36,717 bases of DNA from sequence record NC_000929.1, one strand, 5' to 3'. Numbering within the stretch: the stretch's first letter is position 1; the number at the start of each line of letters is the position of its first letter. Source of the stretch: Escherichia phage Mu. Both the position numbers and the translations under genes were made by a program. Positions 4,312 to 23,542 of this stretch are shown here, one piece after another. Below the pieces are notes generated by a model. That model did no database searches, was not told where the DNA came from, and saw only the letters and a list, made by a program, of their open reading frames with translations.

Positions 4312-4539
4312 ATGATGGCCCGAAATATAAAAATGGCAACGGATGCGCAGAACTGGTTACAGGCGCGCGGGAGTCATGTAAATGAATCATATCTCGGCGT
4401 GGCGCGTCCGATTCTTGAAATCACTTACCCACCGGTGGAACTGGTAAAAAACGCGGTCAGAATTATGGAGCATAAGTCCGGGGTGGCCCGTTCTGTATGG
4501 ACGGCCCGTCTTAATGGTTGCCAGATTATCTGGAGATAA
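4312..4539 (+). CDS. kil: Small early protein, probably Kil (host-killing/cell-division inhibitor)
   Basis: 75-aa ORF directly after B with an AAGGAG RBS; position and size fit Mu kil (~74 aa). Naming rests on position and size only. Confidence 0.6.
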
Positions 4540-4541
4540 CG

Positions 4542-4772
4542 ATGTGTATTAAAGCTGAAAAATATATTGAATGGGTTAAACACTGTCAGTGCCACGGGGT
4601 GCCGCTGACGACATATAAATGCCCCGGATGTGGTGAACAGATTATGACGCAATGCTCACCCGAAAAGGAAATTCGGGATTCCCTGACATGTTGTCCGTGG
4701 TGCAGCGCAGTTTTCTTTAAACAGGTAAAAGGCGCGAAGGTAAAAGCCAGCGCGGTTATTCAGAATCAATAA
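4542..4772 (+). CDS. Early small Cys-rich protein (putative zinc-ribbon), function unknown
   Basis: ATG at 4542 follows the kil stop (TAA 4537-4539) with a GGAGA RBS; the product contains C-x-C ... CPGC ... CC-x2-C. The ORF-track start at 4518 overlaps kil and is less likely. Confidence 0.65.
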   Translation: MCIKAEKYIEWVKHCQCHGVPLTTYKCPGCGEQIMTQCSPEKEIRDSLTCCPWCSAVFFKQVKGAKVKASAVIQNQ

Positions 4773-4783
4773 GGTGAAACAAA

Positions 4784-5047
4784 ATGGCAAAAGTAATTAT
4801 TGAAATTAAAAATACAGTATCTGGAATTAAAGGACGGAATTTGCGCACCAGCATTGCGGTGGACGGTAGTGCGGAACTGGACGGTGATGAGGGTACACTT
4901 GCTGGCATGGTGGCGTTACTGGTGCTTAATAAAAGCCAGAAAATAATTAATGAGTCAGCCCATGAAGCTATTGAGATTTTGAAAAACGATGGTGTCATCA
5001 CCAGTGGTCGTGTCACTGAAATGGCTGTTGAAAAAACATGTCACTGA
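4784..5047 (+). CDS. Early hypothetical protein (87 aa)
   Basis: ORF with an AAGGTGA RBS, tightly packed in the early operon; no recognisable domain. Confidence 0.6.
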   Translation: MAKVIIEIKNTVSGIKGRNLRTSIAVDGSAELDGDEGTLAGMVALLVLNKSQKIINESAHEAIEILKNDGVITSGRVTEMAVEKTCH

Positions 5048-5061
5048 AAGGAACGCTGACA

Positions 5062-5481
5062 ATGAATGTCAAAATCCGAAATGAAATTCAGGCATTAATC
5101 CGAATTCAGGAACGCAATAACAACGGTGGTGAATTACGCGAGTTTATTTGTGCGCGTGAAGTTGATGGCTATGGTGAAAAAACTTACCTGATTACTTTCG
5201 ACCATTACAGCATCTGTGCGCGTTATTGCGGCGAAAGCATATCCCGCGCCATTGCGTCTGGCGATGCGTTTAACGTGGATTTATGGGAGTACGTCATGGA
5301 CCGGGAATACATCTGCGCATCAGACCCTGAAGCCCGTGAAATGTGGCAGCGTATCTGGCGCGATTACCGGTTAATGGCAAAAGGCTGGGCGCGCTGCTGT
5401 TATTCCTCGCTTGCCCTGAAAGCGGTTCAGTTATCGCTGCGGCATATTCCGGCATCACTGCGCGAGCCTCTGCTGTACTGA
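5062..5481 (+). CDS. Early hypothetical protein (139 aa; alternative start 5038)
   Basis: In-frame ATG at 5062 preceded by AAGGAAC; the ORF-track start at 5038 overlaps the previous gene. Confidence 0.6.
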   Translation: MNVKIRNEIQALIRIQERNNNGGELREFICAREVDGYGEKTYLITFDHYSICARYCGESISRAIASGDAFNVDLWEYVMDREYICASDPEAREMWQRIWRDYRLMAKGWARCCYSSLALKAVQLSLRHIPASLREPLLY

Positions 5482-5493
5482 ATGGTGACTGAC

Positions 5494-5781
5494 ATGAAGT
5501 GTAATCGTAAGCGCTGGTCACGCGAAGACCGGGAATTTATCGAAGCCAACGTCGGGAAAATGACCGTTGAAGAAATGGCGGAAAAACTGAAAGTCGCCAC
5601 AACCGCCCTCCGGGCACATGCCAGAAGGCACGGAATATCATTGTGTGTATACCGAATCAGTGAACACGACAAATATTTATGTCGTGAACTTTATAAAGAA
5701 GGACTGGATATTCATGTTATTGCCCGAAAGATGGAATTAAGCAATCGAGCTGTATCCAGCATTGTATACAGCGGATATTAA
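5494..5781 (+). CDS. Early hypothetical protein with a helix-turn-helix-like segment (95 aa; alternative start 5482)
   Basis: ATG at 5494 preceded by GGTGA; the product contains MTVEEMAEKLKVATTALRAHARRHG, which looks HTH-like. Confidence 0.55.
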   Translation: MKCNRKRWSREDREFIEANVGKMTVEEMAEKLKVATTALRAHARRHGISLCVYRISEHDKYLCRELYKEGLDIHVIARKMELSNRAVSSIVYSGY

Positions 5782-5800
5782 TTAACAGGAGCTTTAATTT

Positions 5801-6325
5801 ATGGCTAAACCAGCAAAACGTATCAAGAGTGCCGCAGCGGCTTATGTGCCACAAAACCGCGATGCGGTGATTACCGATATTAAACGCATCGGGGATTTAC
5901 AGCGCGAAGCATCACGTCTGGAAACGGAAATGAATGATGCCATCGCGGAAATTACGGAGAAATTTGCGGCCCGGATTGCACCGATTAAAACCGATATTGA
6001 AACCCTTTCAAAAGGCGTTCAGGGATGGTGTGAAGCGAACCGCGACGAACTGACGAACGGCGGCAAAGTGAAGACGGCGAATCTTGTCACCGGTGATGTA
6101 TCGTGGCGGGTCCGTCCACCATCAGTAAGTATTCGTGGTATGGATGCAGTGATGGAAACGCTGGAGCGTCTTGGCCTGCAACGCTTTATTCGCACGAAGC
6201 AGGAAATCAACAAGGAAGCGATTTTACTGGAACCGAAAGCGGTCGCAGGCGTTGCCGGAATTACAGTTAAATCAGGCATTGAGGATTTTTCTATTATTCC
6301 ATTTGAACAGGAAGCCGGTATTTAA
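5801..6325 (+). CDS. gam: Gam, Ku-like DNA-end binding protein protecting linear DNA from host nuclease (174 aa)
   Basis: 174-aa ORF (MAKPAKRIKSAAAAYVPQNRDAVITDIKRIGD...) with an AGGAG RBS; recognised as Mu Gam. Confidence 0.9.
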   Translation: MAKPAKRIKSAAAAYVPQNRDAVITDIKRIGDLQREASRLETEMNDAIAEITEKFAARIAPIKTDIETLSKGVQGWCEANRDELTNGGKVKTANLVTGDVSWRVRPPSVSIRGMDAVMETLERLGLQRFIRTKQEINKEAILLEPKAVAGVAGITVKSGIEDFSIIPFEQEAGI

Positions 6326-6423
6326 TACCACCATTAATATTTAATTAATTCACATTCTTTTAATTATGGCGCGATACGTCAGGAGATTGCTCGCGCCTGA
6401 AACAGATTACTGAGGAATAAAAC

Positions 6424-6954
6424 ATGGTTGATGCAAAAATTCTGAATGGTGTCAGCACATTATTACGGGCTTACGGACGCCTGACCTGCGGAGTTCTGGC
6501 TGAAAAAATGAATATGCTGCCCTCGTCAATGGTGTATTTCCTGCGTGATGCGGTTGATGCCGGAGTGCTCACCGAATGCAACGGATTTTATGACGTTCCG
6601 CGCCCGCGTCCGACGCCGCCTGTAAGACGAAACGCAACTGAGCAGCCTGCTGTTGATGATGCGGTGTGGTGCAACTGGCGTCGCTCATTACCCTGGGTGG
6701 AAGGTAATACCATCCCCGCGCTGGCAAAAGAGTTTGCGACGGGCGTGCTGACCTGTGAGTCAGTCCACATTGTTGCTGAGGTGGATAACAGAATGTGCGA
6801 ACAGGGAATGCCCCGTTTTGTGATGGCTTATATCGATATCCGGCTGGGGCGTTTTATTTGCAGTTCAAGCGTCTGGAATATCACCGACCATGTACTGCGT
6901 TATCTCATTCTTGATTGTTCTCCGGCTCCCGCAGCGGTGCAGGAGGTGGCGTGA
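6424..6954 (+). CDS. Early hypothetical protein (176 aa), possible winged-helix N-terminus
   Basis: ORF with a GAGGA RBS; the N-terminus resembles a small DNA-binding fold; function unknown. Confidence 0.6.
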   Translation: MVDAKILNGVSTLLRAYGRLTCGVLAEKMNMLPSSMVYFLRDAVDAGVLTECNGFYDVPRPRPTPPVRRNATEQPAVDDAVWCNWRRSLPWVEGNTIPALAKEFATGVLTCESVHIVAEVDNRMCEQGMPRFVMAYIDIRLGRFICSSSVWNITDHVLRYLILDCSPAPAAVQEVA

Positions 6955-7484
6955 TGTTTTTTAAAACGTCAAATCCCGCAGCACTGCTGGCGTGGGACCA
7001 GTTTATGGCGGACTGTCTGAAACTACGCGAAGAAGCCCGCCATCTTGATAAGGTTCTGGGTTGTGGTTGCCGGTCAGTATTCAGCACAAGTATTGGTGGG
7101 CGTTATTTTCATGGTGTGAACTTTCCGGGGAATGAGCGCCCTTTCTCGCGGGAGCTGTGGACCGTACAACGGCCCGCATCAGGTAACAGTTGCAGGCCCA
7201 GAACTTCGCGGATACCTGCTCATCTCAGGGAGCAGGCAAGAGAGCTGGCGAAAATATGGCAGGAGAATATTCCGGTCACTTACGCCCGCACAGACGCTCT
7301 TTTACCCGCACTGGGACTGGATTTCAGCGCAACAATATTCGGGCCGCTCCAGTGGTTCCGTGTTGGTGATGTGATTTACGTCATGACGGGGATGACACCC
7401 GCGCAAGGCCGCATGACTGAAATCCTTTCTGACGAATTTATCCGGGCGCAAAAACAGGCGGAGGTAAACAATGGAAAACAATAA
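6954..7484 (+). CDS. Early hypothetical protein (176 aa)
   Basis: ATG at 6954 overlaps the previous stop (TGATG) and is preceded by AGGAGGTGG; the ORF-track start at 6915 is upstream in the same frame. Confidence 0.65.
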   Translation: MFFKTSNPAALLAWDQFMADCLKLREEARHLDKVLGCGCRSVFSTSIGGRYFHGVNFPGNERPFSRELWTVQRPASGNSCRPRTSRIPAHLREQARELAKIWQENIPVTYARTDALLPALGLDFSATIFGPLQWFRVGDVIYVMTGMTPAQGRMTEILSDEFIRAQKQAEVNNGKQ

Positions 7485-7653
7485 AACATCGTATTCGTGG
7501 CTGGGGAAATTCACCACGGTGAAACAGGAATGCCCGACCTGCGGTAATGAATCCCCTGAATATCTGAAAGAGTGCCCTCATTGTGGCGGGCTGAAATGCA
7601 ACCACTGCGATATGGGCGATGACACAGCGTGCATGAATTGTGAAGGTGAATAA
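7471..7653 (+). CDS. Early small Cys-rich protein (60 aa, putative zinc ribbon)
   Basis: GGAGGT RBS; product has CPTCG ... CPHCG ... C-x2-C ... C-x2-C, i.e. four CxxC pairs. Confidence 0.65.
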   Translation: MENNKTSYSWLGKFTTVKQECPTCGNESPEYLKECPHCGGLKCNHCDMGDDTACMNCEGE

Positions 7654-7654
7654 T

Positions 7655-7957
7655 ATGAATAATGAAACTAAATTTACTCCCCTTAATATTGATAACGTCA
7701 TGGCTGAAAAAGGGATGCTGGAACGTGTTCGCGCTATCGTTGAATATGGTATTAAGCATAATCTCACCGCCAGAGAAGTCCGTGACATTATCAACCGCGA
7801 AATGAATCGTCTGGAAACAGTAGTGGCACTGCAAAATGAAACAGCCCGCGAGGAGTACATCCGCCGCAGGCTGGGGCTATCAGACCAGGATATTGTTACT
7901 GACGCTCATGTGTTTGAGGCTTTTGAGATCCGTCAGCATCTGGGTCTAACGAACTGA
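7655..7957 (+). CDS. Early hypothetical protein (100 aa)
   Basis: ATG at 7655 immediately after the previous stop (TAA 7651-7653) with a GAAGGTGAA RBS; the ORF-track start at 7640 is a GTG. Confidence 0.6.
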   Translation: MNNETKFTPLNIDNVMAEKGMLERVRAIVEYGIKHNLTAREVRDIINREMNRLETVVALQNETAREEYIRRRLGLSDQDIVTDAHVFEAFEIRQHLGLTN

Positions 7958-8162
7958 TAATGTCTTCCATGATCTTTGACAGTTGCAGTTTTTCGCGGCG
8001 GCTTGTTCTCATTGCAGGCGCATCTTTTAAAATCTCTGCTGAAGAGCTGAAAATGGCTTTGCCCTCTTCTGCGGTGATGATCGCCTTCTTCACCAGAAGG
8101 CGCACCAGTGCTGATGCAATCGCATAACCTGCAACATCATAAGGTTGTACATTATTTTCCAT
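7896..8162 (-). CDS. Candidate antisense small ORF (88 aa), status uncertain
   Basis: Minus-strand ATG at 8162 is preceded on that strand by AGAGG with ~5-nt spacing. About 68 codons lie in the otherwise ORF-free 275-bp gap between the last early ORF and gemA; the 3' end overlaps the plus-strand gene. I do not recall an annotated gene here. Confidence 0.25.
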   Translation of the reverse strand: MENNVQPYDVAGYAIASALVRLLVKKAIITAEEGKAIFSSSAEILKDAPAMRTSRREKLQLSKIMEDIISSLDPDADGSQKPQTHERQ

Positions 8163-8232
8163 AAAATCCTCTCTGATTGATGTGTAAATTCAGGCGGTGT
8201 TGCAGCACCGCCCCCTTTCCGGAGGTACGATC

Positions 8233-9247: not shown

Positions 9248-9466
9248 ATGGGTAAAGGCTGGAATGCATCCTTTCATCTTGGCAGACGTGAGCGGCTGCG
9301 TCAGGAGGTTTTGCACCGTGTCGCCGGTGGGCCACGTCCTGCGCCCCGCGACTATACCGGTCATGATGGCACCCACGGCAGTTATTACATGAAAGGCTGG
9401 CAGTCAGTTGATATGCCGGAAATTCTTCATCATTGCCTGCTTTACAGGGAGAAACATTATGTCTGA
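9248..9466 (+). CDS. Middle-operon hypothetical protein (72 aa)
   Basis: ORF with GGGGAAAA upstream of the ATG; first ORF after the early terminator. Confidence 0.55.
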   Translation: MGKGWNASFHLGRRERLRQEVLHRVAGGPRPAPRDYTGHDGTHGSYYMKGWQSVDMPEILHHCLLYREKHYV

Positions 9467-23185: not shown

Positions 23186-23542
23186 ATGGCTGGAAATCAG
23201 CGTCAGGGGGTGGCGTTCATCCGTGTCAATGGCATGGAGCTTGAATCAATGGAAGGTGCCTCCTTCACGCCTTCCGGCATCACCCGTGAAGAAGTGACCG
23301 GCTCGCGGGTTTATGGCTGGAAAGGTAAACCTCGTGCCGCAAAAGTGGAATGCAAAATTCCGGGCGGTGGTCCCATCGGGCTGGATGAAATTATCGACTG
23401 GGAAAACATCACCGTCGAATTCCAGGCTGATACCGGTGAAACCTGGATGCTGGCGAATGCCTGGCAGGCGGATGAACCGAAAAACGACGGCGGCGAAATT
23501 TCGCTGGTACTGATGGCAAAACAAAGCAAACGCATTGCATAA
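23186..23542 (+). CDS. M: Tail tube protein M (118 aa)
   Basis: 118-aa ORF following the sheath gene with an AAGGAG RBS. Confidence 0.85.
   Translation: MAGNQRQGVAFIRVNGMELESMEGASFTPSGITREEVTGSRVYGWKGKPRAAKVECKIPGGGPIGLDEIIDWENITVEFQADTGETWMLANAWQADEPKNDGGEISLVLMAKQSKRIA

Follow-up and report, generated by a model that had tools for sequence, protein, structure and literature searches.

Organization of the gap downstream of gam

Does the non-coding gap that follows gam in the early operon of bacteriophage Mu harbor a functional element and, if so, of what kind? An initial annotation had described this gap as AT-rich, had located in it a stem-loop formed by two short complementary sequences, and had proposed that it may mark an internal regulatory or processing site. 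We examined the locus in the window (the whole stretch of DNA analyzed, which is the phage Mu genome, 36,717 bp), the early region of which matches the GenBank entry "Bacteriophage Mu left end" at 99.6%.

The description of the gap was borne out. The gam stop is at 6325 and Mup11 starts at 6424, leaving 98 non-coding nucleotides (6326-6423) with an AT content of 64%, compared with 48% genome-wide; the first 42 nt (6326-6367) reach 83% AT and rank within the top 0.06% of windows of this length. GGCGCGA (6368-6374) pairs perfectly with TCGCGCC (6391-6397) over 7 bp, and the intervening 16-nt loop holds AGGAG. Sizeable gaps are indeed few in the early operon: in the D108 annotation, the gaps measure 0-38 nt, except for those between gam and gene 11 (98 nt) and between gene 14 and gemA (376 nt), so that only the gap preceding gemA is larger than the one under study. 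The features of the locus are as follows.

5801-6325, + strand: gam, the upstream gene, encoding a host-nuclease inhibitor (open reading frame; Pfam PF07352, 144 bits)
6326-6367, + strand: AT-rich tract, 83% AT, predicted to be mostly unstructured (composition and folds)
6363-6403, + strand: match of the complete element to covariance model R1 (51.2 bits, E = 2e-14)
6368-6374, + strand: 5' arm of the lower stem, GGCGCGA (core GGCGC nearly invariant)
6375-6390, + strand: loop region, 16 nt, TACGTCAGGAGATTGC (AGGAG at 6381-6385)
6391-6397, + strand: 3' arm of the lower stem, TCGCGCC, the exact complement of the 5' arm
6398-6405, + strand: conserved 3' flank UGAAACAG (WWWCAG in most types, from alignments)
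6406-6423, + strand: gene-specific spacer with the Mup11 Shine-Dalgarno sequence GAGGA (6412-6416)
6424-6954, + strand: Mup11 (gp11), the downstream gene in Mu, 176 aa (open reading frame; Pfam PF25754 Gp11_C)

Some further observations concern the neighboring early region. Perfect 7-bp stems (8082-8102 and 8193-8212) also occur in the early operon's largest non-coding gap (window 7958-8196; 376 nt in D108), where a minus-strand open reading frame of 88 aa is located as well (7896-8162). In M64097, the old Mu left-end entry (L001, 1825-2363), the single 176-aa Mup11 reading frame is split into E10, E11, and E12, presumably owing to old frameshift errors; the same entry has C where window position 6412 has G, immediately before the Shine-Dalgarno sequence.

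Predicted fold of the gap

RNAfold predicted the 7-bp lower stem (six G-C pairs) together with a 3-bp upper stem, in which GUC (6378-6380) pairs with GAU (6385-6387) and closes the apical loop AGGA (6381-6384). The 40-nt hairpin segment has a predicted ΔG of -14.8 kcal/mol (z = -2.9 versus shuffles), and for the whole gap, z was -1.94 (+ strand) and -0.40 (- strand). When the gap was dinucleotide-shuffled 5000 times, a perfect GC-rich stem of 7 bp arose in only 7 cases. Comparable stems are not enriched across the Mu genome (20 versus 14.4 ± 4.6 in whole-genome shuffles); the stem alone is therefore within chance, and it is conservation, rather than the stem itself, that sets the gap hairpin apart. 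The lack of enrichment is what would be expected if the hairpin were a functionless product of chance, conserved through recent shared ancestry or gene conversion at a recombination junction.

A hairpin with a ΔG of -14 to -22 kcal/mol and a z of about -3 was predicted in every lineage. We dropped a strand call based on fold energies because the lineages were divided, approximately six favoring the + strand and five the - strand. Early transcription of Mu runs rightward from Pe and yields a transcript that also encodes Mor, the gene for which is located further downstream (PMC2582627). Early transcription must therefore cross the gap, and the RNA that carries the gap is the + strand early mRNA.

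Distribution of the hairpin among Mu-like phages

Post-gam regions were gathered from annotated phages, including D108, SfMu, and Yersinia Mu-like phages, as well as from 47 bacterial genomes and 80 viral contigs; a match was present in 128 of 5,426 E. coli genomes. In all phages with a Gam at least 90% identical to that of Mu, the AT tract and the hairpin are almost unchanged. Diverged enterobacterial relatives and one Aeromonas prophage carry a recognizable hairpin with altered stem bases, and 44 distinct hairpin variants were distinguished among Mu-like phages and prophages.

The covariance model of the element (R1) was built from 17 variants. Its sole strong match in the Mu genome is at 6363-6403 (51.2 bits), the next best scoring 16 bits and the - strand 7.6, and each related locus (2-14 kb) contains exactly one + strand match. 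We found neither extra copies nor a repeat family of the element in the Mu genome. The order of parts is constant across loci: a stop codon, an AT-rich tract of 28-51 nt, the hairpin, 12-26 nt containing a Shine-Dalgarno sequence, and ATG. The tract keeps its sequence within the Mu type, and distant types retain only its AT-richness and length. The searchable literature yielded no mention of the hairpin element and no transcript-end, cleavage, reporter, or decay data for the gap; a 2026 paper on a prophage sRNA, in which the Mu-like prophage Sp18 is named, proved irrelevant. In Mu-like prophages of Gilliamella and Orbaceae, a conserved open reading frame of approximately 45 aa begins 2-3 nt past the gam stop, where Mu has the gap (L014-L019, L025, L028, L029, L033, and L034).

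Selection on the hairpin

An earlier selection test compared the gap with fourfold sites of the whole of gam in close relatives (91-96% versus 60-68%). This test overstated conservation, because gam is mosaic and its 3' end is highly conserved in close relatives, and distant lineages with local reference sites were used instead. In relatives whose Gam is 90-94% identical, third-codon identity within gam is 46% at 5876-5950 and 85-89% at 6176-6322, a pattern that suggests a recombination breakpoint within the gene. In these relatives, the gap is conserved no more than the third positions of the last 150 nt of gam (85-89%); part of its conservation among close relatives is thus regional. The conservation peak also reaches into both genes flanking the hairpin.

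For the local test, the third positions of fourfold boxes in the last 60 codons of gam in distant lineages served as the neutral reference. The hairpin (approximately 30 nt) is 71% identical among distant lineages, compared with 33% at these fourfold sites (pooled and saturated). The equal conservation of adjacent synonymous sites in close relatives agrees with the absence of a function; nevertheless, the hairpin remains conserved where adjacent fourfold sites are saturated, persists beside a non-homologous upstream gene, and keeps its stem and a loop G-run in all 44 variants. The distant-lineage fourfold comparison alone already largely refutes a functionless hairpin, and we regard that reading as very improbable. 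On the basis of these comparisons, we are confident that the hairpin is a single-copy element kept by selection at the junction of exchanged modules. Because it is conserved across Mu-like phages despite differing flanking genes, it probably represents a genuine control element of the early mRNA.

Base pairing and the conserved loop

The 5-bp core GGCGC/GCGCC is almost invariant across the variants; hence, RNAalifold supports five pairs only, and the covariation in the alignment is real but modest. When the entire stem of 9-10 pairs was considered, 80-81% of the cells were paired, versus 28-50% when the partners were slid by 1-3 columns. Pair 11-48 covaries among the 44 variants (C-G in 31, U-A in 11, and U-G in 2), and pair 6-53 is C-G in 27, A-U in 1, and U-A in 1, with U·U in the Mu type. 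Read on the + strand, the alignment holds four G·U intermediates versus two A·C or C·A mismatches. The core has been lengthened differently in each lineage: by two inner pairs in Mu, by three outer pairs in the Kluyvera type, and by up to 10-11 pairs in L108, L109, L134, L268, and the Aeromonas prophage. Many variants also form a small upper stem, GUC/GAC or GCC/GGC.

Loop length ranges from 9 to 16 nt across the variants. The 5' half of the loop is conserved (CGUCAGG in Mu; GCGUCAGGG or GCGCCGUGGG in variants), the G-run is universal, and together they form the most conserved part of the element. The modest covariation and the five RNAalifold pairs leave room for a sequence-specific reader of DNA or RNA, and the conserved loop suggests an additional, trans-acting reader of this type. 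CGTCAGGRGA with one mismatch occurs at 10 sites in Mu, versus 2.9 expected from shuffles; this enrichment was set aside, since the other nine sites (for example, 9299-9308 and 23201-23210) lie inside coding sequence and appear to reflect a CGT-CAG codon-pair effect.

Exchange of the flanking genes

Both neighbors of the hairpin vary. Downstream, at least eight unrelated genes were found, including Mup11-like and DUF5420-annotated genes, and in phages with another downstream gene the similarity ends approximately 7-9 nt past the stem, just after the 3' flank. Upstream, the neighbor is gam or, alternatively, a DUF3164 gene unrelated to it. Scanning viral contigs for the pattern and filtering the results with the model yielded five loci in which the hairpin follows a 205-aa DUF3164 gene (290 bits) that holds the gam position, after A, B, and a kil-like gene. 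A query with the DUF3164 protein retrieved 41 loci, and the element is present in all 26 whose protein shares at least 79% identity with the query; the listed relatives that are at most 72% identical have neither the gap nor the element. The hairpin stays with the downstream gene in these exchanges and is thus not tied to the upstream gene. The clade with DUF3164 in the gam position comprises enterobacterial Mu-like prophages (L203, L154, L137, L190 [oriented 4539-5156], L191, and L256-L281), and the DUF3164 protein may be a functional substitute for Gam.

The hairpin type does not follow the gam phylogeny: between the L107 and PhiKM types, 87% of the hairpin but 68% of Gam is shared, whereas the figures for the Kluyvera and L107 types are 63% for the hairpin and 98% for Gam. 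In PhiKM (L006, 1731-1952), a deposited minus-strand coding sequence spans the gap and hairpin and is probably a mis-call; the + strand reading frame MIFKCIQCE..., which has a good Shine-Dalgarno sequence, lacks annotation.

This mosaic setting bears on whether the element acts as DNA, either as a short conserved linker supplying homology for two-sided module exchange or as the binding site of a conserved phage or host DNA-binding protein. The breaks in similarity directly flank the hairpin on both sides, its type is decoupled from the gam phylogeny, the conservation peak runs into both flanking genes, and sequence is retained, with little covariation, in the core arms and in the 5' half of the loop. 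Nevertheless, the C-G to U-A compensation, the U-G intermediates, and the lineage-specific stem extensions favor pairing over a fixed DNA word. Recombination homology would be a consequence of conservation and not its cause, and the element, compared by eye, does not match the MuA site consensus provided in the D108 record. We therefore consider an element acting at the DNA level unlikely.

Repeated elements at cassette boundaries offer a further comparison. T4-type PeSLs are promoter-early stem-loops that border variable genes in many copies per genome. The Mu-type element resembles them as a short conserved unit of an AT-rich tract and a stem-loop located where accessory genes swap, but it lacks a detectable or conserved promoter and has one R1 match in Mu and one per locus. 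With a single copy per genome, the hairpin does not flank cassettes in the manner of PeSLs or integron attC sites. Resemblances to MuA sites and attC were likewise rejected on inspection by eye.

Relation to translation of the downstream gene

The element might instead be a translation-initiation module for the next cistron, its hairpin marking the 5' edge of the ribosome-binding site. The G-run loop (AGGAG in Mu) would then recruit or park the 30S subunit, or bind CsrA jointly with the Shine-Dalgarno GGA, thereby setting translation of the next gene across an uncoupled gap of 98 nt. The 3' end of the hairpin is 12-26 nt (mode 23) from the start codon, whichever gene follows; the loop G-run occurs in 44/44 variants, and in 42 of these, if G·U pairing is permitted, a 4-mer can base-pair with the anti-Shine-Dalgarno sequence CCUCC. 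However, the tight spacing may simply result from genome compaction, as every incoming gene carries a Shine-Dalgarno sequence of its own directly past the junction, and the Shine-Dalgarno-like motif in the loop has no start codon at a usable distance.

CsrA-regulated leaders carry a GGA in a hairpin loop and another in the Shine-Dalgarno sequence with a similar spacing of approximately 30 nt. Mu has such a pair, one GGA in the loop (6382-6384) and one in the Shine-Dalgarno sequence (6414-6416), separated by approximately 30 nt; about half of the variants share this arrangement, with the first GGA in the apical loop. The universal loop feature is the G-run, however, whereas a loop GGA is present in only 24 of the 44 variants and missing from 20, and therefore CsrA cannot account for the conservation; a CsrA site pair was rejected on this ground. 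The pairing of the U-rich tract with the Shine-Dalgarno sequence in the minimum-energy fold of Mu was also discarded: over 33 variants, its value was 0.44 for the native and 0.44 for shuffled tracts, and the native tract exceeded the shuffled ones in 12. Taken together, a translation-initiation module appears rather doubtful.

In a broader proposal, the element would be a portable entry point for accessory genes. Its conserved G-rich loop would be read by a specific trans-acting factor, either the 30S subunit or a conserved phage or host RNA-binding protein, switching on or protecting variable, possibly anti-defence genes, and the conserved 50 nt would supply homology for swaps on both sides. 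We consider this proposal speculative and improbable.

Comparison with terminators and other known elements

The GC-rich hairpin at the end of a gene (7-bp stem, ΔG of -14.8 kcal/mol) resembles an intrinsic terminator, and at the same position unrelated Mu-like phages carry hairpins that look like terminators. Unlike an intrinsic terminator, however, the Mu stem is followed by UGAAACAGAUUACUG and has no U-tract, a terminator scan was empty in the gap, and genes essential for the next phase, mor among them, lie downstream on the same transcript. An intrinsic terminator was thus rejected.

A weaker version holds that the hairpin is a terminator-derived pause site or weak attenuator that slows or partly stops RNA polymerase after gam, either lowering distal transcription or giving a ribosome time to load on the next cistron before Rho acts. 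Consistent with this version, the unrelated Mu-like loci L037, L111, and L038 have a terminator-like hairpin followed by a U-run at the same position, and an untranslated gap of 98 nt would otherwise uncouple transcription from translation. The Mu-type hairpin, by contrast, is followed by UGAAACAG, at which the scan found no terminator. Moreover, mor is essential for the middle phase and is located downstream on the early transcript (PMC2582627); termination at the hairpin therefore cannot be strong. A pause site or attenuator is, in our judgment, quite unlikely.

Hairpins occur after gam beyond the Mu type. Among unrelated Mu-like loci with a true post-gam gap, 10 of 14 carry a strong hairpin of unrelated sequence (z ≤ -2.4). 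One of these is a betaproteobacterial-type family, found in the first approximately 65 nt after gam (L037, L111, L114, and L118; GAUGGCGUUAAAnCUAGCGCCAUC); it has a covarying stem and a conserved loop, and some copies are followed by a U-run, as in intrinsic terminators. Other unrelated post-gam hairpins are present in L023, L024, L038/L129, L039/L053, and L132.

Several other classes were considered. No sigma-70 promoter-like site was found on either strand of 5000-8000, and hexamers sought by eye (-35/-10 with 16-18 bp spacing) were poor and not conserved between element types. The Rfam search of the whole genome gave no match at the gathering score, and only noise at E ≤ 10 within 6250-6500. 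A 15-aa open reading frame or leader peptide (ATG at 6366 to TGA at 6413) was rejected, as neither its frame nor its length is conserved: it is disrupted by a 1-nt deletion in L005 and a 1-nt insertion in L074, has GTG in L100, ends at different stops in YpM_3 and SfMu, and shows mainly non-synonymous substitutions.

Two further signals were also rejected. The RfaH ops consensus is GGCGGTAGnnTG; at its G5 and T6 positions, comparison by eye revealed disagreement in Mu (GGCGCGAUACGU) and a C at position 5 in the best relative, L104 (GGCGCTAGCGTC). A lambda-type nut site consists of boxA (CGCUCUUA) upstream of a short hairpin (boxB) with a purine-rich pentaloop. The gap offers a loose U-rich likeness to boxA (UUCUUUUAA), which is lost in distant types, and the loops of the element measure 9-16 nt.

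A possible processing and stability site

The anatomy of the gap corresponds most closely to intercistronic processing and stability sites of the papBA and malEF type. In papBA, RNase E cleaves upstream of a hairpin, which protects the downstream mRNA (PMC5927463). Dar and Sorek (2018) reported that in 7 of 10 E. coli operons with an RNase E site upstream of a stabilized gene, an unstructured AU-rich stretch with the RNase E motif consensus RN|WUU precedes a stable structure (PMC5927463). The Mu gap resembles this arrangement: it lies between cistrons of one polycistronic mRNA, inside the early operon, and its AU-rich tract, predicted to be mostly unstructured, contains two RN|WUU-type matches (AU|AUU at 6337-6341 and AC|AUU at 6352-6356) and adjoins a stable, evolutionarily conserved hairpin, which ends approximately 20-25 nt ahead of the next start codon. 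Such matches, however, are expected in any AU-rich tract. The element also differs from papBA in that its loop sequence is conserved, a feature that the papBA model does not call for, and that it is situated at a mosaic junction of a phage operon. The malE-malF gap (cited in PMC5927463) offers a second parallel, with a GC-rich stable hairpin that follows a gene and lacks a U-tract. In Mu, the hairpin is 42 nt past the stop codon, and terminating ribosomes should thus not melt it. Unlike in malE-malF, the element includes an AU-rich spacer of 28-51 nt and a conserved loop, neither of which a barrier requires.

We tentatively, and with low confidence, favor the possibility that the hairpin is a site of this type on the early transcript. 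RNase E would cut the AU tract closely upstream of the hairpin. The distal mRNA, which carries the variable accessory genes, would then have its 5' end capped by the hairpin, or the hairpin would block 3'-5' exonucleases, or both. In either case, accessory-gene expression would no longer be coupled to expression of the transposition-gam segment. The location of the gap on the rightward early transcript, the stable, well-paired hairpin in every lineage, its conservation relative to fourfold sites in distant lineages, its independence of its neighbors as a single-copy element, and the separate strong hairpins in most of the unrelated gapped loci are consistent with such a processing and stability site. 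Nevertheless, conservation is highest in the G-run and the 5' half of the loop, whereas a hairpin serving as a barrier or cap would not require its loop to be conserved. The fold energies, moreover, exhibit no clear preference for the + strand, the modest covariation is compatible with a sequence-specific reader, and in close relatives the gap is no more conserved than the 3' third positions of gam. The initial proposal of an internal regulatory or processing site holds as far as a cis-acting element is concerned (44 variants, saturated neighboring sites, some compensatory changes, and swapped flanking genes), whereas processing is what we infer from the anatomy of the gap.

Implications for the Mu early operon

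The hairpin appears to be an intercistronic cis-acting element of a known general kind that is undescribed in the searchable literature. Mu is a reference phage, and, to our knowledge, post-transcriptional regulation of its early operon of approximately 8 kb is largely unstudied. The conserved transposition-gam segment lies on one side of the hairpin and the variable accessory genes on the other. Should the hairpin control how strongly one part is expressed relative to the other, this would explain how Mu-like phages can swap accessory genes without disturbing essential early functions, and mutational tests would have a defined target of 40 nt. Inclusion of the motif in RNA family databases would improve the annotation of Mu-like prophages, and its interest lies mainly with specialists in phage Mu and RNA motifs.
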